Source: Patescibacteria group bacterium (GTDB lineage: Bacteria > Patescibacteriota > Minisyncoccia > Phycocordibacterales > UBA918). Taken from it: 64,000 nucleotides of DNA. Numbering within the stretch: position 1 is the first letter of the stretch; every line of letters begins with the position of its first letter. The position numbers and the translations under genes are program-made. Under the pieces are notes generated by a model. It did no database searches and was not told the origin of the DNA. It saw only the letters and a program-made list of their open reading frames with translations. This document shows positions 3,529 to 33,181 of this stretch, in pieces. The stretch lies in the NCBI GenBank assembly GCA_019750255.1, contig JAIEOU010000004.1, forward strand, positions 63,116 through 127,115, given 5' to 3'.

Positions 3529-4503
3529 ATGTCAGACTCTACAAAACAGCGCGTTCTCACGGGCCTTCAGCCTTCCGGCACTCTCCATATTGGTAACTAC
3601 TTTGGTGCCTTAGCACCCCTGCTTGCACTCACAAAAGAACATGATGACGTGTTTCTCATGGTCGCCGACTACCATGCCCTTACCACTGTCCGCGATGGCG
3701 TACAACTCCGCGAGCATATTATGAATATCGTACGCGACTACTTGGCAGCCGGCATCGACCCAAACCGTCGTGTCACGCTTTTCCGCCAGAGCGATAATCC
3801 CGACCACATGGAACTCGCGTGGGTACTTAACTGCATGGTGACGGTACCATTTCTGATGCAAGCACATTCATACAAGGACAAGGTAGCCAAGGGCCTTGAA
3901 GCCAACGCCGGACTGTTTACCTACCCGATGCTTATGGCGGCCGATATTGCGCTGTATGATACTGATCTTGTGCCGGTAGGGGAGGACCAGCGACAACACC
4001 TTGAATACACTCGTGAAGCGATAGCAAAATTTAATAATGCCTACGGGGAAGTACTGAAAGAACCGAAGGAGTTAATCCAAAAAACCGTCGGGGTGGTGCC
4101 GGGTACTGACGGTCAAAAGATGAGCAAGAGCTACAAAAATACCATTCCATTATTTGGTACTCGAGAAGAAATTGAAAAAGCGGTCCTCAGTATTGTTACC
4201 GACTCTTCCGGCGAACGCCCCGAACATGTCTACGCGATTCATAAGGTCGTTTACGAACACACCGGGAAAGACCTGTCTTCGCTTGATGCTCTCTACGAAG
4301 AACACAAAGGTAAGTACAAGGCACTTAAAGACGCCCTAACAGAAGACCTCGACGCCTTTGTTGCACCAATGCGCGACAAGCGAGCCAGTATTAGCGACGA
4401 GTACATTCTTGAAGTCTTAGCTACTGGCGCTGCCAAAGCCCGCGCCGCCTCCGCCTCGACCATGTCCCGCGTCAGGACGGCAATTGGTATTTCTTTGCCA
4501 TAG
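3529..4503 (+). CDS. trpS: tryptophanyl-tRNA synthetase
   Basis: class I motifs PSGTLHIGNY (HIGH) and KMSKS; length 324 aa. Confidence 0.9.
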   Translation: MSDSTKQRVLTGLQPSGTLHIGNYFGALAPLLALTKEHDDVFLMVADYHALTTVRDGVQLREHIMNIVRDYLAAGIDPNRRVTLFRQSDNPDHMELAWVLNCMVTVPFLMQAHSYKDKVAKGLEANAGLFTYPMLMAADIALYDTDLVPVGEDQRQHLEYTREAIAKFNNAYGEVLKEPKELIQKTVGVVPGTDGQKMSKSYKNTIPLFGTREEIEKAVLSIVTDSSGERPEHVYAIHKVVYEHTGKDLSSLDALYEEHKGKYKALKDALTEDLDAFVAPMRDKRASISDEYILEVLATGAAKARAASASTMSRVRTAIGISLP

Positions 4504-4509
4504 GTTGCC

Positions 4510-4745
4510 ACTCCTTCTTTATTCCGGTAGAGTGTAGTAACGCCAACGAAGCGGCTGACACCGCTGAGGTGGGGGAGGAACGTTTATCCTAGGACCGGCC
4601 TAGGATTTGCCAGTAGAACCCCCCGGGTGCGCCCGATATTGCGCATAACGAGATTCAAGTAGGGTGGTACCGCGTCTTAGCATCTTTATGATGTAGTCGC
4701 CCCTGCAGCTATATTATTAACGTAATGTAACTGGAGGGGCGTTTT
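4510..4745 (+). promoter_or_regulatory. T-box riboswitch leader of aspS
   Basis: T-box core AGGGTGGTACCGCG at 4661-4674; candidate specifier loop GCGG-CUGACA-CCGC with GAC (Asp) at 4557-4559; followed by terminator hairpin. Confidence 0.6.
4699..4745 (+). terminator. T-box attenuator terminator
   Basis: stem GCCCCTGCAG / CTGGAGGGGC followed by GTTTT; 5-prime arm CCCU complements AGGG of the T-box. Confidence 0.55.
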
Positions 4746-4893
4746 ACGTACTCTCCAAAGCTTGTTTAAAATCGATGAGTTACGAGGCGTTCGAGCGAGG
4801 ACGTACGAGGTGTACTTTTACGTACAGTGAGTGTGTCCGAGCGATGAACAACGAAGTAAATCGCGATTTTTAGCAAGCGCCTCCCAAACAAAT

Positions 4894-6246
4894 ATGGAAA
4901 GAACATTGATTAAAGACCTTGCAGCAAAGGTAGGTGAGACGGTAACTATTAACGGCTGGGTTGATGTTACCCGCGTCCAGGGCAAGGTAGCGTTCTTTGA
5001 CGTCCGCGACCGCACGAGCTTTGTGCAAGGCGTAGTCTTTGGCAAGCCAGAAGTTCTTGAAGTTGCCACAGCGCTGAAGCCCGAGTACGTGGTAGCCGTG
5101 ACTGGTGTGGTACAGAAGCGCCAAGAAAAATCCATCAACGATAAAGTTGAAAATGGCGACATTGAACTCGAGGTAACGAGTATCGAAGTGTTGAATGAAG
5201 CGCAGCCACTCCCGTTTGCGAGCGATGCCGAGATTAACCTCGATACTCTCCTTGATAACCGACCAATTACCCTCCGCCGCAAACACGAGCGCGCTATCTT
5301 TAAAGTGCAGCACGAAATTCTCGTAGCGTACCGCACCCACCTCGTCTCCCAAGGCTTTACCGAATTTCAGGCACCAAAACTGGTCGGTGGTGACGCCGAA
5401 GGTGGGGCAGAGGTGTTTAAGGTAAAGTACTTCAAGGGCGTAGAAGCGAGTCTCGCGACCAGCCCCCAGCTCTATAAGCAAATCATGGCCGGGGTGTTTG
5501 AACGTGTGTTTGCGGTTGGTCCCACCTTCCGTGCTGAAAAGAGCGCTACCTCACGCCACCTCTCCGAGATCTCCATGATGGACCTGGAGATGGCGTTTAT
5601 TAAGGACCACACCGACGTGATTACGCTCGTTACTGGTCTTATTCGCGCCATTGTCGAACACGTTAACACCACCTGCGCCAAGGAACTCGAATATCTTGGT
5701 CAGCCGCTCGCACTAGCGCCAAAAACCTTCCCGGTCATGACCCTGCGTGAGGGACTAGAAATTATTAAAAAGGAGACCGGGGTTGACAAGACCGGCGAAC
5801 CCGACCTCGAACCAGAAGACGAGCGCTTCTTGTGCGAATACGCCAATAAGCACATGGGTTCAGACTTCGTATTTGTCACCCACTACCCAACGAGTAAGCG
5901 ACCGTTTTATACCCACATCGACCCAGAGCAGCCAGAGCTCACTCGCAGCTTTGACCTCCTCTTCCGTGGCCTTGAAATGTGTTCGGGTGGCCAGCGTGTT
6001 CATAAGTACGACGAGCTCGTCAGCCGAATCGAGAAGAAGGGTCTTGATCCAGAACGTTTCCAGTTCTACCTCCAAGCCTTCAAGCATGGCATTCCACCAC
6101 ACGGCGGTATCGGTATGGGACTTGAGCGTCTCACCGCTAAATTCTGTGGGGTAGCGAACGTAAAAGAAGCTACTCTCTTCCCGCGCGACATCAACCGCAT
6201 CGACACACTGACGAGTAAAGAGTCGAGTGACGAGGCGGAGTTATAA
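4894..6246 (+). CDS. aspS: aspartyl-tRNA synthetase (short archaeal/eukaryal-type, probably non-discriminating)
   Basis: class II aaRS motifs (FRAE, GGIGMGLERL), N-terminal OB fold, 450 aa; start at ATG 4894 (MERTLIKDL). Confidence 0.9.
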   Translation: MERTLIKDLAAKVGETVTINGWVDVTRVQGKVAFFDVRDRTSFVQGVVFGKPEVLEVATALKPEYVVAVTGVVQKRQEKSINDKVENGDIELEVTSIEVLNEAQPLPFASDAEINLDTLLDNRPITLRRKHERAIFKVQHEILVAYRTHLVSQGFTEFQAPKLVGGDAEGGAEVFKVKYFKGVEASLATSPQLYKQIMAGVFERVFAVGPTFRAEKSATSRHLSEISMMDLEMAFIKDHTDVITLVTGLIRAIVEHVNTTCAKELEYLGQPLALAPKTFPVMTLREGLEIIKKETGVDKTGEPDLEPEDERFLCEYANKHMGSDFVFVTHYPTSKRPFYTHIDPEQPELTRSFDLLFRGLEMCSGGQRVHKYDELVSRIEKKGLDPERFQFYLQAFKHGIPPHGGIGMGLERLTAKFCGVANVKEATLFPRDINRIDTLTSKESSDEAEL

Positions 6247-12846: not shown

Positions 12847-13965
12847 ATGCGCATCATGTTCGTCGGGGGAGGTACAGGAGGACACTTTTACCCGCTCTTA
12901 GCGGTTGCGGAGGCTCTGCGCGCCCGAACCGACGGACGGGTTCGGGAGCTCTACTACATTGGTCCAACTCCTTATGAACCAGACGAACTTGCAAGACTCG
13001 ATATTCGCTTTGTTTCTTGCCCGGCAGGAAAACAGCGTCGTTACTTTTCTTTCCAAAATTTTATTGACCCATTCAAAGTAGTGTTTGGTTTTTTTGTAGC
13101 GCTTGTAAAGCTCTACGTTATTTATCCAGACGTAATTTTTAGCAAGGGTAGCTTTACCAGCGTACCGGTCCTCTACGCAGCGCGCATACTCCGCATTCCG
13201 GTGGTAATCCACGAATCAGATGCCATTGCGGGCCGAGCTAATCTGTTGGCAAAAAAATTTGCGCGACACATAGCTATCGCCTATCCCGAAGCAGCTCAAT
13301 ATTTCCCTAAGGATAAAACAGCTCTGGTTGGCATACCAATACGGGCCGCATTACGCACGCCACCAGTAGACGCTCATGCATATTTAGGCATTCCACAGGA
13401 CCTACCACTGCTAGTGGTGACTGGCGGATCACTTGGTGCTGAGTACATCAATAACTTACTGCTGCGCTCACTACCCACTCTACTCCAGGAATACCGTATA
13501 TTCCACCTGGCCGGAACATCGCACTTTGATGAGATTAAGCTTACCGCCAAAACACTCGTAACTGACACGACCCTGCGCAGTCGTTATTACCTACAACCGA
13601 GCGTACCCGCTCCCGTTATGGCCGCACTCCTGTCGGCTGCCACTTTGGTCATCAGTCGTTCGGGGAGCTCTTCAATTCACGAATTAGCCTTCTATGGAAA
13701 ACCCGCCATCTTAATTCCTATTCCCGAAAGCGTGAGCCGCGATCAACGCACCAATGCCTTCGCGTACGCACGCTCTGGAGCAGCGTCGGTACTCGAACAA
13801 GATAACCTGACTGAGCATTTGCTTACCGCTGAAATTAAGACTATTATTGGTGACCCTACGCGCTACGAGTCCATGGCAAAGGCGGCCAAGGGCTTTGCCC
13901 TTCCGGGCGCAGCCGAGCAGGTGGCCAATCTCGTAACGTCTATTGGTGTTGAACATGGCTCCTAA
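12847..13965 (+). CDS. murG: undecaprenyldiphospho-muramoylpentapeptide beta-N-acetylglucosaminyltransferase
   Basis: GGTGGHFYPLLAVAEAL N-terminal G-loop; GT28 architecture. Confidence 0.85.
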   Translation: MRIMFVGGGTGGHFYPLLAVAEALRARTDGRVRELYYIGPTPYEPDELARLDIRFVSCPAGKQRRYFSFQNFIDPFKVVFGFFVALVKLYVIYPDVIFSKGSFTSVPVLYAARILRIPVVIHESDAIAGRANLLAKKFARHIAIAYPEAAQYFPKDKTALVGIPIRAALRTPPVDAHAYLGIPQDLPLLVVTGGSLGAEYINNLLLRSLPTLLQEYRIFHLAGTSHFDEIKLTAKTLVTDTTLRSRYYLQPSVPAPVMAALLSAATLVISRSGSSSIHELAFYGKPAILIPIPESVSRDQRTNAFAYARSGAASVLEQDNLTEHLLTAEIKTIIGDPTRYESMAKAAKGFALPGAAEQVANLVTSIGVEHGS

Positions 13966-15445
13966 TTCTACAGATACCTCACTTCGCCCCGTCGTGACGC
14001 GCTTTGCGCCATCACCCACCGGCTTCATGCATATTGGCGGTGTACGCACCGCACTTTTTGCCTACCTGTATGCCAAGCGCCACAGGGGAACCTTTATTCT
14101 ACGTATCGAAGACACTGACAAGGAACGTGAAGTCCCTGGGTCAATCGCCCACATTCAAGAGTCCCTGGCCTGGCTCGGCATCACTCCTGATTTTGGCCCA
14201 GACACTCCCGGGCCGTGGGGAAGTAACATCCAGTCAGAGCGTCTCTCAATCTATAAGCGCTACGCCGAGGAACTGATTGCCAAGGGTTTGGCGTACCCTG
14301 ACCCTTATACTGCAGCCGAGGTTGAGGCATTTCGGGCACAAGCCACAGCAGAGAAGCGGCCGTTTTTAATCCGAAACCACCGGCCCGCAACTTTTGAAGT
14401 CTGGGATGGGACCAAGCCCCTACGGCTTAAGGTACCCGAGGTAAAGCGCTACACCTGGCACGATGTGGTACGCGGCGAGCTTACGGCTGGGGAAGAGGCA
14501 CTTGATGACGTTGTGCTCATAAAGGCCGACGGCTATCCGACGTACAATTTCGCGCACATTGTGGACGACCATGAAATGGGCGTGACACACATTATGCGAG
14601 CGGACGAATTCATTTCGAGCCTGCCTAAGTTTCTTTCTATTTACGACGCCCTCGGGCTTCCGTATCCAGAGTTCGTAACGATGCCCCCCATCCTTCGTGA
14701 TGACCGCAGTAAAAAGCTCGGCAAGCGTGATGGAGCTAAAGACATCCTCGATTACCGTACTGAGGGGTATTTGCCTGAAGCCATGATGAACTTTCTGGCA
14801 CTGACCGGCTGGAACCCAGGCACCGAGCAAGAACTATTTACCCACGATGAACTTGTGGCAGCGTTTGATGCCACCAAGATCCAGCGCGCTGGGGCAGTGG
14901 TAAATGAGGACAAGCTTCTGTGGATGAACAAGTACCATCTTGGCAAGAAGGATGAGGCATTCAAACATGAGTACGTAAAGAACGCGCTTCCTGAAGCGCT
15001 CCGTAGCCTACCTACCTGCACCGAAGAAATCCTCACAGCACTCACTCCAGTAGTGCTAGAACGTATCCATACCAAGGTAGAGATTTCCGACGCCGCAAGG
15101 GAAGGGGAGTACGATTTTGCCTTTATTACTCCAGAGTACGACACTGCGTTACTACAGTGGAAGAAAGACCCGAGCGTGTTAGAAGCACTTCCGCGCCTCA
15201 AGCGCGTTTTCGAGATACTCAGTGCGGCGAATGTAGATTTCAGTAATGCCGAAGCGCTCAAAGAGTTGCTTATGCCCTACGCAGAAGAAGTAGGGAAGGG
15301 GGAGGTACTCTGGCCCCTACGGGTCGCTCTTTCAGGTCGTGCTCAGTCGCCTGATCCCTTTACAATTATGACTATCATTGGTGGGGGAGAAACCTTGAAA
15401 CGCCTCAGTAATGCCTGTGGTAAAATACAGGGTGATGCATCGTAG
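13943..15445 (+). CDS. gltX: glutamyl-tRNA synthetase
   Basis: PSPTGFMHIGG (HIGH region), KLGKRDG (KMSKS-like); 500 aa; overlaps murG 3-prime end. Confidence 0.85.
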   Translation: MVLNMAPNSTDTSLRPVVTRFAPSPTGFMHIGGVRTALFAYLYAKRHRGTFILRIEDTDKEREVPGSIAHIQESLAWLGITPDFGPDTPGPWGSNIQSERLSIYKRYAEELIAKGLAYPDPYTAAEVEAFRAQATAEKRPFLIRNHRPATFEVWDGTKPLRLKVPEVKRYTWHDVVRGELTAGEEALDDVVLIKADGYPTYNFAHIVDDHEMGVTHIMRADEFISSLPKFLSIYDALGLPYPEFVTMPPILRDDRSKKLGKRDGAKDILDYRTEGYLPEAMMNFLALTGWNPGTEQELFTHDELVAAFDATKIQRAGAVVNEDKLLWMNKYHLGKKDEAFKHEYVKNALPEALRSLPTCTEEILTALTPVVLERIHTKVEISDAAREGEYDFAFITPEYDTALLQWKKDPSVLEALPRLKRVFEILSAANVDFSNAEALKELLMPYAEEVGKGEVLWPLRVALSGRAQSPDPFTIMTIIGGGETLKRLSNACGKIQGDAS

Positions 15446-18269: not shown

Positions 18270-19211
18270 ATGAACCACTTACCTCTCATCGACGACTTCT
18301 TGCTACACATCCAAGCGAATAATTATTCGCACGAGACGCTGTACAACTATGAGCGCGACCTCGATACCTTTGCACATTTCTTGCAGACTGAATTGCGCGG
18401 ACTGACCTTCGATAAAATTACTAAAAAAACTATCGAACAGTACAAGGCGTACCTCAACTCCCCCACCCGCAAAACGTCGGCCGGTAGTGAATCATTTGTA
18501 AAATTAAAAAGTGGCTCAATCAATCGGCATCTCACCTCACTACGGCGCTACCTGAACTTTCTGCTCGACATGGATGAGAAGGTTCCGGTGGCCCCCACTG
18601 CCATCAAGCTCCTACGTATGGGCAAGCCGAGTAGTCAGGTCCTTGAGCTTAATGAACTCATTAAACTTATCGAGTCCCCCACCACGCTGGAGCCTGAGCA
18701 CTTTGTCGCTATGCGTAACCGCGCTCTTCTCGAGACTCTCTTTGCTACCGGTATGCGTATATCAGAGCTCATCAGCCTACGTATCAATCAGCTCGACCAT
18801 ACCGGCAAGATCTACATTCAAGGTAAGGGCAAAAAGCAACGCTTCATATATTTAACTGAACGTGCCGAAGGTCACATCCGTGCGTATTTAAAGCTACGTG
18901 ATGATTCGTGTCCTTTTATCTTTATTGCGCAGCGTGGACTCAATGCCAAAAATACCAAAAAGCACATATCTGCAAATTATCTTCAAATGAAAATTAAACG
19001 CTACCGCGAACTGCTTGGCATTAGCATTCCAACCAGTGCCCACAGCTTACGTCACGGCTTTGCTACCTACTTGGCCGAACAAGGCGCCAATCCCGCCGCC
19101 ATTCAAGTGCTTCTCGGTCACGAATCGCTCGAGACCACGACCCGCTACGTGCACGCAAGTGACCGCTACGCTGAAACCACCCACAAGCAATTCCACCCAC
19201 TTAAGAAGTAG
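18270..19211 (+). CDS. tyrosine recombinase XerC/XerD family
   Basis: C-terminal catalytic region HSLRHGFATYLAEQG ... LGHESLETTTRYVH with active-site Tyr. Confidence 0.85.
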   Translation: MNHLPLIDDFLLHIQANNYSHETLYNYERDLDTFAHFLQTELRGLTFDKITKKTIEQYKAYLNSPTRKTSAGSESFVKLKSGSINRHLTSLRRYLNFLLDMDEKVPVAPTAIKLLRMGKPSSQVLELNELIKLIESPTTLEPEHFVAMRNRALLETLFATGMRISELISLRINQLDHTGKIYIQGKGKKQRFIYLTERAEGHIRAYLKLRDDSCPFIFIAQRGLNAKNTKKHISANYLQMKIKRYRELLGISIPTSAHSLRHGFATYLAEQGANPAAIQVLLGHESLETTTRYVHASDRYAETTHKQFHPLKK

Positions 19212-28814: not shown

Positions 28815-28880
28815 GTCTGATGCAATCTTCGGCGCGGACAGGTATCCCCTGCTCCGCGCCGTTCACATTTTTTTTAATTC

Positions 28881-28918
28881 AAAAAAGCGGCGGGCCCTTT
28901 GGGGCCCGCCGCTTTTTC
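28881..28918. terminator. bidirectional Rho-independent terminator
   Basis: aaaaaagcggcgggccc tttg gggcccgccgcttttt. Confidence 0.7.
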
Positions 28919-28949
28919 ATTTACTCATGTATTCAGTCGCTCAAGTTTA

Positions 28950-29717
28950 CTAGCTACGTACAATCTCCACCTTCTCCACCACAATCGCCTCGAGCGGGAG
29001 ATTATTTCCCGGATTCACCTCTACCTGTCCAATTGCATCAACAATGTCCATACCTCCAACTACCCGACCAAATACTGGATGCTTTGATGACAAAGGTTCC
29101 TTATCGAAGTCGAGGAAAGTATTATCAACAAGGTTAATGAAGAATTGACTACCGCCACTTTGTGGACCACTGTTAGCCATCGCGATGGTGCCGCGGAGGT
29201 TCGTGAGGAACTCACCCTTTATGTGCTCGTCAGCAATTGCGTAGCCAGGCCCCCCACTACCGTAACTTATTACGTTATCAGTTTTAGTATTTGGATCACC
29301 TCCCTGCACCATAAAACCCTCAATTACACGATGAAACTTGGTACCACTATAAAATCCTTCCTCAGCCAACTTCATGAAGTTTTCGGTAGTGATAGGCATG
29401 GTATCGGCAAATAACTCAAGTTCAATCACTCCTTTGTTCGTGGTAATTTTTGCTACTGGATTCATAGGATTAGTTTTATCTGTATCATAAGCGGCGAGTT
29501 CTTCGACAGTAAGTGGTGCAGGCAAGTTCTCCTCAAGTGCAATTTGGTCAGTACTACCCTGACCAAACTGACTCAAACTCCCTCCTCCACCCAACCAGTA
29601 AGAGATACCGCCAATCAAAAGCGCGCATATACCAATCACCGCAAGCACTGTCACCGATCCTTTGGGAAGTTGATCCATAATTGTGTGAACAAATACTAAA
29701 TAAACGCTACGCCGCAA
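28950..29717 (-). CDS. cyclophilin-type peptidyl-prolyl cis-trans isomerase, membrane anchored
   Basis: HRVIEGFMVQGGDP signature; N-terminal TM. Confidence 0.85.
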   Translation of the reverse strand: MRRSVYLVFVHTIMDQLPKGSVTVLAVIGICALLIGGISYWLGGGGSLSQFGQGSTDQIALEENLPAPLTVEELAAYDTDKTNPMNPVAKITTNKGVIELELFADTMPITTENFMKLAEEGFYSGTKFHRVIEGFMVQGGDPNTKTDNVISYGSGGPGYAIADEHIKGEFLTNLRGTIAMANSGPQSGGSQFFINLVDNTFLDFDKEPLSSKHPVFGRVVGGMDIVDAIGQVEVNPGNNLPLEAIVVEKVEIVRS

Positions 29718-30272: not shown

Positions 30273-31709
30273 TTACTGCGAAACTGGTGTCGAGGACGCC
30301 ACCTCACTCACCACCTCCTCGCCCTTAAGGAAGCGGAGCGCAGCATCAAGTTGCGGGTCCTGGCCATCGATAAATTGCTGTGGTGTGCGGTTAATTTTGA
30401 TGTCTGGAGTGAGACCACCTTGCGAGATTGAGACACCATCTGGAGTGAGCCAGCGAGCCACCGTCACCTTCACTGACGCGCCCGATGGAAGATCTACGAG
30501 TTCTTGTACTGAGCCTTTTCCAAAAGTGGCTGAACCGATGACTGTAGCAACACCATGATCCTGGAGAGCGCCAGCTAGAATTTCGGAAGCCGAGGCTGAA
30601 CCGCCATCAACCAGGACGACGAGCTGCTTGGGCGCAAAGTCACGCAACGTACGACCCTGACTACGAAACACTGTCTCTTCCTCGTCATCACCGTAGTTTT
30701 CACGGACGACAATTTTGCCCGTCGGCAGGAAGAAGCCAGCAATCGCAACGGCACTTTGGAGGAGGCCGCCAGGGTTTCCTCGCAAATCGAGTACCATCGT
30801 GGTGGCGTCACTGCGCACGTATTCACGCAGAGCGTCCTGCATTTTAGCTTCAGAAATAGCATTAAAGCTGTAGAGTTTGATGACAAAGGTGTCGTCCTTG
30901 CGCTCGGTCACTACAGTTGGAACATTAATATTATCGCGCACTACCTCAATGGTGCGGAACTCTGTCTCACCCTTGCGGAAAATTTCAAACGTAACGGACG
31001 TGCCCTTTTCACCACGAATCAGACGCACTGCCTCATCTACCCGCATCGATTCGGTCGTTACCCCGTCAATTTTTACGATCACGTCCCCAGCTACAATACC
31101 CGCCCGTTCGGCCGGTGTTTCAGGAAGTGGAGCGATAACGGTAATGACCTCATCGCGAATACCCACCTCCATACCGACTCCGCTAAAATTGCCAGAAATG
31201 TCTTCGGTAAGTGCTTGTGTATCAGCCGGCGGCAGGAAAACCGTATAGGGATCACCATATGCATCAACCAAACCATCGATAGCACCTTGAATTTTTTCTT
31301 CCGTAGAAACGGTGGTGGTTCCAGAGGTCGTAAATTTGTTGTCCAAAATCTCCCACACACGCCAAAACTCATCAAGATTTACACCACTTTGACTCACGCC
31401 CGGGGTCGAGGCAAAAAGTGAAAAGGAATTCGCTTCGTTATTGCCGGCGGCGCTCAGTATACCGAGCTCACCGAGCCGGAGCCCGGTCATAAACGTTCCA
31501 ATCGCAAACAGGAGGGCTAGCGTGATACCTAAGTAACGACCACGCTTGGGAGTCGTCCCTTCACTTCGATCTACCTTTGCCCGAACCGACGCGGGAGTAA
31601 TTTCATTCACCATGTCACTAGTATCGCACAAGTGATGGTGCTCTCCAAAATTATGCCTGTGAGTGCAGCATGAACGGTGCCGAGCGCAGCAGTTTTCTGC
31701 TATACTCAT
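30273..31709 (-). CDS. ctpA: carboxyl-terminal processing protease (S41) with PDZ domain
   Basis: GNPGGLL, SASASEILAGALQD (catalytic Ser), PDZ region. Confidence 0.85.
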   Translation of the reverse strand: MSIAENCCARHRSCCTHRHNFGEHHHLCDTSDMVNEITPASVRAKVDRSEGTTPKRGRYLGITLALLFAIGTFMTGLRLGELGILSAAGNNEANSFSLFASTPGVSQSGVNLDEFWRVWEILDNKFTTSGTTTVSTEEKIQGAIDGLVDAYGDPYTVFLPPADTQALTEDISGNFSGVGMEVGIRDEVITVIAPLPETPAERAGIVAGDVIVKIDGVTTESMRVDEAVRLIRGEKGTSVTFEIFRKGETEFRTIEVVRDNINVPTVVTERKDDTFVIKLYSFNAISEAKMQDALREYVRSDATTMVLDLRGNPGGLLQSAVAIAGFFLPTGKIVVRENYGDDEEETVFRSQGRTLRDFAPKQLVVLVDGGSASASEILAGALQDHGVATVIGSATFGKGSVQELVDLPSGASVKVTVARWLTPDGVSISQGGLTPDIKINRTPQQFIDGQDPQLDAALRFLKGEEVVSEVASSTPVSQ

Positions 31710-31720
31710 ACTGTTTTAGT

Positions 31721-33181
31721 ATGTTTGGTTCACTCTTTAAGGCCGCTACCGCACCAGCACCGGCTCCCCATGTGCGTTTTTATAACACCCTGTCCGGAAA
31801 AATTGAGGACTTTGTTCCACTCACTCCTCCTACAGTGACGATGTATAGCTGCGGACCCACTGTCTACGGACACGCACACATTGGCAATCTTCGGTCTTAT
31901 GTCTTCGCGGACATTCTCCGCCGCACCTTAATCAACGCAGGGTACGACGTTAAGCACACGATTAACCTCACCGACTTCGGCCACCTTACTGATGACGCTG
32001 ATGCGGGTGAGGACAAAATGATGAAGGGACTCAAGCGCGAGGGTCTACCTATCACCCTGACGGCTATGCGCGAACTATCAGACCGCTACATTATCGCCTT
32101 TAAAGATGATGTCGACGCCCTGCGCATCTTACCGCCCACCACCTGGGCCAGAGCTAGTGACTATGTGGATGTGCAAATTCGACTCATTGAAACTCTTGAC
32201 GGAAAGGGCTATACGTACGAAACCAGTGACGGTGTCTACTTCGATATCAGTAAGTTTCCAACATACGGCCGACTTGGCAATATCAACCTTGATCGCCTCC
32301 GCAGTGGTGCGCGTGTTGAAATCAACAGTGAAAAGCGTCATCCGGCCGACTTTGCCGTCTGGAAAAAAGGTCTCCTCGGCTGGGACAGTCGCTGGGGCAA
32401 GGGGTTCCCTGGTTGGCACATTGAATGCTCGGCCATGGCCATTGCAACCCTCGGGAAACAGATTGATATCCATACCGGTGGCATTGACCATGTCCACACC
32501 CATCACAATGCGGAACGTGCCCAAAGCGAGGCTGCCACCGGCAAAGAGTTTGCCCACTTTTGGATGCACAACGAATTTATCACTATTGATAACACCAAGA
32601 TATCCAAGTCGCTCGGCAACGACCTCACCTTGCGTCACTTGGTTGAAAACGGCTTTTCTGCAGACGACTACCGCTACTGGCTACTGACGGCTCATTACCG
32701 CTCACCGGTAAACTTTTCTTTCGAAGCTCTCAAGGGCGCAAAACAAGCCCTGTACCGACTCAAGCGGCACATGTATGAAGAATACCGCGGAGTTAAGCCA
32801 ACTCTTAATGACACGCTTCTTAATCGCTTTACCGCCCACCTCGCGAACGACCTCGACACACCTGGCGCCCTTGCCCTTGCCTGGGAGGTAGTGAAAGATT
32901 CTTCCCTTTCGCTCGGCAGTAAATATGGAACCCTCCTTGCCATGGACAGCCTGCTTGACCTTGGTCTTGGCGACGATCCAGATAAGGGCGCTCGTTCGCT
33001 CGGCATTATTGCCAAAGACGAGCTTCCCGAAGATGTTCAGCTGTTAGTCGACAACCGAGAAATCGCTCGCATTGCGCGCAACTGGCCCCAGGCCGATTAT
33101 CTGCGCGAGGCTCTTAACCTTAAAGGCTACACTGTCGAGGACACACCGCACGGTCCGAAAGTGACAAAGGCAGTATCCTAG
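31721..33181 (+). CDS. cysS: cysteinyl-tRNA synthetase
   Basis: CGPTVYGHAHIGN (HIGH) and KISKSLGN (KMSKS); start at ATG 31721. Confidence 0.9.
   Translation: MFGSLFKAATAPAPAPHVRFYNTLSGKIEDFVPLTPPTVTMYSCGPTVYGHAHIGNLRSYVFADILRRTLINAGYDVKHTINLTDFGHLTDDADAGEDKMMKGLKREGLPITLTAMRELSDRYIIAFKDDVDALRILPPTTWARASDYVDVQIRLIETLDGKGYTYETSDGVYFDISKFPTYGRLGNINLDRLRSGARVEINSEKRHPADFAVWKKGLLGWDSRWGKGFPGWHIECSAMAIATLGKQIDIHTGGIDHVHTHHNAERAQSEAATGKEFAHFWMHNEFITIDNTKISKSLGNDLTLRHLVENGFSADDYRYWLLTAHYRSPVNFSFEALKGAKQALYRLKRHMYEEYRGVKPTLNDTLLNRFTAHLANDLDTPGALALAWEVVKDSSLSLGSKYGTLLAMDSLLDLGLGDDPDKGARSLGIIAKDELPEDVQLLVDNREIARIARNWPQADYLREALNLKGYTVEDTPHGPKVTKAVS

Follow-up and report, generated by a model that had tools for sequence, protein, structure and literature searches.

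The 64-kb stretch of DNA analysed here (64,000 nucleotides, nt, of a Patescibacteria group bacterium, contig JAIEOU010000004.1; hereafter the window, with all positions given on its forward strand) carries, between trpS and aspS, a leader that on the comparative sequence evidence, which settles its identity, is a genuine T-box riboswitch of stripped-down build. We consider it very probable that positions 4540-4745 are a T-box leader through which aspS, the gene for an archaeal-type non-discriminating aspartyl-tRNA synthetase (ND-AspRS), is controlled by transcription attenuation in response to uncharged tRNA-Asp. The elements of the leader and its two alternative helices (Table 1) are conserved and covary among relatives, and they are linked to ND-AspRS genes. 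A T-box is itself not new; what is new is the host phylum, the pairing of this decoding module with this platform, and the loss of modules.

Elements of the leader and their conservation

The T-box core named in an original prediction, which had been made from the letters of the window and a list of its open reading frames, is present at 4661-4674. A letter check of the window gives it as AGGGUGGUACCGCG, that is AGGGTGGTACCGCG, an exact match to the conserved 14-nt T-box sequence AGGGUGGNACCGCG; AGGGTGGTACCGCG has no second match in the 64 kb, and a tolerance of one mismatch, at which chance would yield 0.11 matches, adds none. Once thresholds are relaxed, RF00230, the T-box model of Rfam, can be aligned along its whole length (model positions 1-219) to 4537-4707 at 32.1 bits (E = 2.2e-5 for the 601-nt region, E = 0.0023 for the whole window); among the parts so matched are the K-turn, Stem IIA, the GAA...AGUA motif of Stem II and the antiterminator.

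The score itself speaks against a T-box, as the gathering score of RF00230 is 93 bits, and a scan of the whole window at gathering thresholds brought no Rfam family to its threshold. The original prediction had named a sub-threshold score as grounds for giving up the T-box; formally such a score was obtained, together with the full-length alignment. We judge it invalid as a refutation, because the deficit is caused by two deletions, in which 74 upper Stem I positions of the model are reduced to 4 nt and 17 Stem III positions to 2 nt, and because the Patescibacterial leaders that match RF00230 in the same scan likewise score 27-52 bits. All of these lie under the threshold and are therefore missed by standard annotation pipelines; canonical aspS T-boxes of Clostridium, which served as a positive control, score 119-127 bits. 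The low score is also what would be expected if an ordinary intergenic region resembled a T-box by chance. We give that idea practically no weight, given the expectation for the 14-nt core with one mismatch, the presence of all modules in the correct order, and the conservation of the leader with covariation in more than 30 genomes; the comparative data have already refuted it.

For the comparison, 80 loci encoding relatives of the window AspRS were fetched and numbered from L001. The AspRS homologs are 450 residues long, are named ND-AspRS and are labelled Patescibacteria, Paceibacterota or Parcubacteria; the closest locus, L001, is from a Candidatus Paceibacterota genome bin and encodes an AspRS 96% identical to that of the window. 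Among the 43 Patescibacterial loci that have upstream sequence, 31 carry the core GGGTGG[C/T]ACC upstream of the ND-AspRS aspS. Eleven of the 12 leaderless loci have a short intergenic region or another gene upstream, and in the twelfth, L041, the sole core-like match lies within the trpS coding sequence; 12 of the 43 have thus either lost the T-box or never gained it. In three leaderless loci (L015, L025 and L033) trpS directly adjoins aspS. A custom covariance model (R1), built from six leaders, finds all full-length leaders outside its training set at 38-97 bits; on 0.5 Mb of unrelated metagenome contigs it gives one strong match, which is itself a homologous leader.

Stem I is ultrashort. 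The hairpin GCGG-CUGACA-CCGC from which the original prediction started is present and is predicted by RNAfold, and a UGAC hairpin is found in 31 of 32 homologous leaders, its stem carrying compensatory changes. The other ground for refutation given there, a GAC hairpin that homologous leaders fail to conserve, clearly does not apply. In an alignment of Stem I from 31 leaders (alignment A1), the upper helix covaries at three pairs (GC25/AU3/GU3, CG28/UA3 and AU24/GC7); its covariation score was reached by 0 of 500 shuffles, and slid registers were all much worse. By sequence, the K-turn reads CC-AAC-GA...GA-GG, and conservation of its residues G11, A12, G31 and A32 (numbering of alignment A1) is 90% or more. 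The distal double T-loop motif by which the elbow of the tRNA is bound (AG bulge and distal loop) is absent, its place being taken by the 4 nt that replace 74 model positions. There is no room for a longer Stem I, because the promoter-like site lies directly upstream, itself immediately preceded by the trpS stop at 4503; relatives have TTGAC(A/G/C)-N17-TAnnnT at the same distance 5' of Stem I. A hidden long Stem I further upstream was rejected on this arrangement, which is common to the window and its relatives, and the apparent long Stem I of L005, L011 and L012 proved to be an extension of Stem II.

The loop of Stem I presents GAC followed by A, upstream of aspS. GAC is a codon for Asp, complementary to the anticodon GUC, and GAU likewise encodes Asp. 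The bases U-G-A of the loop are invariant in all 31 leaders of alignment A1; 30 of them have C as the third codon base and one has U, and the codon is followed by A in 29 and by U in two. The proposed placement of a GAC specifier in a terminal hexaloop is thus supported, with GAC or GAU in 31 of 31 aligned leaders. Two other readings of CUGACA were considered and rejected: CUG followed by A would make the specifier Leu, Leu or Met according to whether the first loop base is C, U or A, and ACA fails where the base after GAC is U. Since the base preceding the U varies and the CUG reading is unconserved, the specifier is GAY.

Downstream of Stem I, the lower helix of Stem II covaries at three pairs (AU7/GC3, GC11/AU1 and GC10/AU2), and AGUAGA is kept in the relatives that have a long Stem II. 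In an alignment of 13 such leaders (alignment A2), 95.6% of the cells of Stem I, lower Stem II and the antiterminator are paired and nine pairs have changed on both sides, a result matched by 0 of 500 shuffles. An automated pseudoknot finder was noisy, often taking Stem III instead, and was replaced by a restricted search and manual reading. Pairing IIB of the pseudoknot covaries extensively in relatives (GUGC/GCAC, ACGC/GCGU, GCGC/GCGC, UUGCGC/GCGCAA, UUGGU/ACCAA, UUGGC/GCCAA and UGC/GCA). The linker that follows contains the conserved RAG element, the role of which is described in PMC11297988.

The antiterminator has helices A1 and A2 arranged around a UGGNACC bulge. Helix A1 is invariant in 32 leaders; helix A2 covaries, its fourth pair in relatives being GC13/AU13/GU3 in the same 32. 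The stretch CGCCCCU (4698-4704) is both the 3' strand of the antiterminator and the 5' arm of the terminator, and because it is common to both folds the two are mutually exclusive. An attenuator of this kind, with its 5' arm able to pair alternatively with the T-box region, had been proposed, and the fold comparison bears it out: the antiterminator folds at -12.8 kcal/mol and the terminator at -25.8 kcal/mol (z = -6.05; an equally stable fold came from 0 of 200 shuffles). An equivalent of the terminator hairpin occurs in 32 of 32 leaders, at -15 to -67 kcal/mol, with at least six U within the 12 nt after it in 27. The shared strand also shows three-way covariation: the base just 5' of CGCCCCU forms GC13/AU13/GU3 within helix A2 and UA15/CG7 within the terminator. 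Where C has changed to U in this strand, the antiterminator is left with G.U and a compensating change gives U-A in the terminator.

Table 1. Features of the leader and of the region up to the end of aspS (window positions; basis of the assignment; details).
Feature	Positions	Strand	Basis	Details
Promoter-like site	4505-4533	+	Consensus scan, 9/12 matches	TTGCCA-17-nt spacer-TAGAGT
Ultrashort Stem I	4542-4570	+	Rfam alignment, RNAfold, alignment A1	Base helix G4542-C4544 with G4568-U4570; K-turn (GA motif) with AAC bulge, G4548-A4549 facing G4566-A4567; upper helix A4550-G4554 with C4561-U4565, capped by 6-nt loop; specifier hairpin 4551-4564: GCGG 4551-4554, CUGACA loop 4555-4560, CCGC 4561-4564
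Specifier	4557-4560	+	Conservation in alignment A1	GAC 4557-4559, then purine A4560
Stem II	4571-4623	+	Rfam Stem II consensus alignment; fold -21.4 kcal/mol	Lower helix G4571-G4575 with C4619-C4623; internal loop with S-turn-type motif AGUAGAA 4612-4618 facing AGGAA 4576-4580; short distal hairpin 4586-4606
Stem IIA/B pseudoknot	4624-4646	+	Restricted search	IIA, CGG(G) 4624-4627 with (C)CCG 4632-4635; IIB, loop GUGCGC 4627-4632 with GCGCAU 4641-4646; F-box-like CGAUA 4634-4638
Linker	4647-4660	+		AACGAGAUUCAAGU; RAG element GAG 4650-4652
T-box sequence and antiterminator	4661-4704	+	Rfam, fold	Helix A1, AGGG with CCCU 4701-4704; 7-nt bulge UGGUACC 4665-4671, in which UGGU is predicted to pair with tRNA 3' NCCA; helix A2, GCG.C 4672-4676 with G.CGC 4696-4700; extra hairpin 4680-4694
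Intrinsic terminator	4698-4745	+		Hairpin 4698-4741; UUUU 4742-4745
Imperfect palindromic insertion, ~120 nt	4760-4879	+		Between terminator and aspS ATG, within the leader but outside the riboswitch core
aspS	4894-6246	+		Predicted archaeal-type ND-AspRS, 450 residues

Proposed switch and alternative readings

From these elements we infer how the leader would work. Transcription would start just 3' of the promoter-like site, at about 4540, and the nascent RNA would fold the ultrashort Stem I, whose K-turn and helix of five base pairs would display GAC-A in the apical loop. The IIA/B pseudoknot and the S-turn-bearing Stem II would dock beside Stem I and create an anticodon-binding groove, as in the ileS T-boxes of Mycobacterium and Nocardia, where the anticodon GUC of tRNA-Asp would pair with GAC. 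The 3' NCCA of an uncharged tRNA would then pair with UGGU (4665-4668) and stabilise the weak antiterminator, so that the strong terminator, twice as stable, would be blocked and RNA polymerase would read into aspS; charged tRNA could not dock, and the terminator would form.

Control might instead act on translation or RNA stability, as in the Actinobacterial T-boxes with a short Stem I, since the type of decoding module seen here 'mostly' regulates translation (PMC10482949); the terminator 3' arm, moreover, contains GGAGG (4733-4737). We regard this as very improbable, as the platform is a terminator with a U tract rather than a Shine-Dalgarno sequestrator, a U-rich tail follows the hairpin in 27 of 32 leaders, and no Shine-Dalgarno sequence was seen before the ATG. 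The aspS ATG lies 153 nt past the terminator (25-45 nt in relatives), and because of this distance occlusion of the ribosome-binding site is impossible here.

The switch could also sense tRNA-Asn, in addition to tRNA-Asp or in its place. Both tRNAs are predicted substrates of the enzyme, and GAC could pair with the anticodon GUU of tRNA-Asn through a G.U wobble at the first position, which would allow a single leader to monitor the two. Two related leaders present an Asn codon. In L069 (2261-2426, + strand), which has the same design of short Stem I and terminator, the hexaloop CAAACA gives AAC-A, and the gene behind it encodes a divergent ND-AspRS (NF003483, 484 bits). In L160 (1386-1425, + strand) the loop CCAACA gives AAC-A at the same apical position; the metagenome contig ends just past Stem I, so that any core and downstream gene would lie beyond it, the order histidine kinase-trpS-leader is that of relatives, and the closest TrpRS relatives (L166 and L167) have UGAC-A loops. 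A search for the rest of this locus by way of its TrpRS found the exact protein only on the same 1.4-kb contig. Judged from these loops, the specifier appears to switch between the two tRNA substrates of ND-AspRS, GAC or GAU in most leaders and AAC in L069 and L160, and sensing of tRNA-Asn would have been selected in some lineages. A precedent for one leader reading two tRNAs is the Clostridium T-box on an ND-AspRS/GatCAB operon (Saad 2013, as cited in PMC4052509). For the window leader, however, we think sensing of tRNA-Asn quite unlikely: the wobble is deduced purely from base-pairing rules, the Stem II S-turn, which braces the specifier-anticodon helix in solved complexes with a short Stem I (PMC10482949), may disfavour it, and if GAC read tRNA-Asn the change to AAC in L069 and L160 would be needless. 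As for other amino acids, a metagenome pattern scan for the same Stem I, narrowed to a GCAG/CUGC stem and to codons not starting with G, matched 83 stretches, none with a T-box core downstream and only L160 a real leader; within that scan no other specificity was found.

Sensing of tRNA-Asp was also considered at the bulge, which is UGGC in 29 of 32 leaders and UGGU in the window. The discriminator base of tRNA-Asp is G73, which fits UGGC and would form G.U with the UGGU of the window. Because the canonical GAC T-boxes of Clostridium (the 119-127-bit controls) use UGGU too, this bulge is compatible with Asp specificity.

Several further features count against the attenuation reading. Most relatives have a Stem III between GAG and AAGUA; in the window only AUUC lies there. 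Stem III is part of the discriminator domain, and structural work ties it to sensing of the tRNA 3' end (PMC11297988). Helix A2 of the window has a U.U mismatch where relatives pair G-C or A-U, and the U tract is short and interrupted (UUUUACGU); a simple terminator scan missed the site. Transcriptional T-boxes generally need the elbow contact of a long Stem I for fast tRNA capture, and a short Stem I is tolerated in translational ones, for which there is no time limit (PMC7583486); a short Stem I coupled to a terminator therefore runs counter to that expectation. Complementarity to the anticodon and to the discriminator is presumed from tRNA-Asp in general, as no tRNA gene was found in the window or in the 46 related loci scanned. 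Finally, the insertion between the terminator and aspS, with a weak promoter-like site at 4743-4772 (consensus scan), could partly uncouple the gene from the switch.

Some of these features would also suit a decaying relic, in which tRNA sensing is disabled and the terminator is constitutive and partial or else bypassed. Absence of Stem III, the U.U mismatch, the promoter-like site that comes with the insertion and the change from UGGC to UGGU in the sublineage of the window can all be read in this way, and eleven related genomes without a leader indicate that its loss is tolerated. We nevertheless find decay unlikely. The sublineage formed by the window, L001 and L082 shares the lack of Stem III, the UGGU bulge and a small extra hairpin on helix A2; L081, which is cut by the contig start, has the same UCAAGUAGGG junction, bulge and hairpin. 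Throughout the window, L001 and L082 the switch helices are intact, with Stem I, Stem II, the pseudoknot, the T-box sequence and the terminator all kept at AspRS identities of 87-96%, and what is available of L081 (T-box sequence and terminator) is in agreement. Between the window and L001 the pseudoknot has changed in a compensatory way, from GUGCGC/GCGCAU to GUGC/GCAC, canonical Asp T-boxes use UGGU, and it would be costly to keep a dead terminator of -25.8 kcal/mol ahead of an aspS that is presumably the only one in the cell. The form without Stem III would thus be a functional variant rather than a product of decay.

Relation to described T-box classes and variation among relatives

Four T-box classes are defined in PMC10482949: class I, transcriptional, with a long Stem I and Stem II; class II, the glyQS type, with a long Stem I and no Stem II; class III, mostly translational and found on Actinobacterial ileS, with a short Stem I that lacks the double T-loop motif, a specifier in an apical loop of 5-6 nt and a required Stem II; and class IV, whose Stem I is intermediate in length. 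The decoding module of the window leader is that of class III, as judged from the hexaloop CUGACA, the S-turn motif AGUAGAA and the covarying pseudoknot, and the likeness to the ultrashort Stem I T-boxes of Actinobacteria drawn in the original prediction was correct. Class III ileS T-boxes are reportedly those of M. tuberculosis, M. smegmatis and Nocardia farcinica, and are said to have been treated by Sherwood in 2015 and Battaglia in 2019. Shared with them are the lack of an elbow-binding motif, the specifier in an apical loop of 5-6 nt, the K-turn, the Stem II S-turn, the IIA/B pseudoknot with an F-box-like sequence, the RAG element and the T-box bulge. The window leader differs in having an intrinsic terminator in place of a Shine-Dalgarno sequestrator, in its Asp specifier (GAC) on aspS rather than an Ile specifier on ileS, in its Patescibacterial host and, within its own sublineage, in the absence of Stem III. 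Unlike class III, for which Stem II is required (PMC10482949), many relatives of the window leader dispense with the Stem II domain.

Class I T-boxes on archaeal-type ND-AspRS genes of Clostridia (L063, L064, L067 and L074) resemble the window leader in the regulated family (NF003483), the GAC-A specifier, the UGGU bulge and the terminator-based switch, and the window leader would, like them, monitor a substrate tRNA of ND-AspRS. The Clostridial leaders, however, are in tandem and have a full Stem I with AG bulge and distal loop, and score 119-127 bits against 32. The ND-AspRS operon of C. acetobutylicum is under a tRNA-Asn T-box with a long Stem I, according to Saad 2012 and 2013 as cited in PMC4206432 and PMC4052509. 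Class II glyQS leaders (Bacillus and Geobacillus) share terminator-based control of transcription, but they are glycine-specific and need a long, elbow-binding Stem I, whereas the window leader retains both Stem II and the pseudoknot and has no long Stem I. In glyQS a single-stranded linker stands in for the Stem II domain, and it is similar to that of minimal relatives such as L010, L014 and L018.

These minimal leaders, about 11 in number (L010, L014, L018, L019, L021, L022, L027, L029, L036, L166 and L167), have neither Stem II nor the pseudoknot; Stem I is followed by an A-rich linker of 12-22 nt, after which come directly the RAG element, Stem III and the antiterminator. Some span only 108-126 nt (L014, 1237-1344; L010, 564-684). 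They fit none of the four described classes.

Other relatives carry additional sequence. A long Stem II in L005, L011 and L012 has at its tip (~1335-1365 in L005) the conserved arrangement AGCGAAGU-CGCU-UGGCAGGU-AGCG, which resembles the canonical AG bulge and distal loop (compare AGCGAGU-AGG-GUUGGUGUAAG-CCUA in the Clostridium locus L063); the elbow contact may here have been relocated to Stem II. A second type of Stem II insert, GCGACUAnUnCGAAnUUnCAUCCCGAUUUnGC...GCAAAUC, is common to L028, L066 and L082, at a place where no more than a short hairpin is present in the window and L001. Palindromic insertions recur after the terminator (L026, ~2310-2500), in the terminator loop (L011) and atop helix A2 (A2 loops of L018-L023 and L029; for example AUGUUCGACGUCCGACGUCGAACAU). 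Their recurrence suggests small mobile or hairpin-forming elements that target these leaders or are tolerated in them.

Taken by their sequences, the leaders appear to be a Patescibacterial T-box clade in which all members lack the elbow-binding top of Stem I yet have terminators, and the sublineage of the window has also lost Stem III. It is possible, though we put this forward tentatively, that they make up an undescribed clade of transcriptional T-boxes without elbow contact, combining a class III module with a terminator, losing Stem III or Stem II, and switching between GAC/GAU and AAC. No paper linking T-boxes to Patescibacteria, the Candidate Phyla Radiation or Parcubacteria was found in the literature library that could be searched, itself a limited one; the T-box database paper sought leaders with a short Stem I only in Actinobacteria, in addition to matches of the Rfam model with a truncated Stem I.

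T-box regulation would hereby be extended into the Patescibacteria (Candidate Phyla Radiation). If functional, the leaders contradict the view that co-transcriptional T-box switching needs an elbow-binding motif, and more than 30 natural leaders that join a short Stem I to a terminator offer a direct test of the kinetic argument. Relatives lacking Stem II or Stem III represent natural T-boxes of very small size that could serve structural studies and engineering. That only the non-discriminating aspS has a T-box, with an Asp or Asn specifier according to lineage, points to control, in organisms with a very reduced metabolism, of the entry step that Asp-tRNA formation and tRNA-dependent Asn synthesis share.

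The downstream gene and its surroundings

The aspS product is, from its sequence, predicted to be an archaeal-type ND-AspRS charging both tRNA-Asp and tRNA-Asn. A 450-residue, likely non-discriminating enzyme of archaeal type had been proposed, and the NCBIfam matches agree: NF003483 (aspartate--tRNA(Asn) ligase) scores 492.5 bits against a cutoff of 353 and TIGR00458 scores 386.2 against 368.4, whereas the protein fails the AsnRS model (292 against 414) and the bacterial AspRS model (236 against 443). Pfam identifies tRNA-synt_2 and an OB fold. The start was placed at the ATG at 4894, not at the GTG at 4831. An exact-protein lookup found no record of the same protein, a tblastn search of the 64-kb window found no paralog of aspS or asnS within it, and a Pfam scan of large open reading frames showed none with a GatA or GatB domain.

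The palindrome between terminator and gene folds at -50.2 kcal/mol. No second copy was found in the window or in the related loci, and its reading as a repeated mobile element is unsupported. It is absent from L001 (AspRS 96% identical) and L081 (89%); L082 (87%) has a 155-nt stretch containing the insertion, 86% identical, which folds more weakly at -32 kcal/mol. The 10 nt TTTTACGTAC are found as a direct repeat at 4742 and 4816.

Three other synthetase genes lie in the window, trpS (3529-4503), gltX (13943-15445) and cysS (31670-33181); the window scan found no T-box at any of them, so that of the four synthetase genes only aspS has one. A gene for a tyrosine recombinase of the phage integrase family is located at 18270-19211 (+ strand). 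Just downstream of a cyclophilin gene (28950-29717, - strand) there is a sub-threshold match to the Rfam ylbH leader at 28827-28920 (- strand), which covers the full length of the model at 33.4 bits, where the threshold is 50 (E = 0.0026 over the window as a whole).

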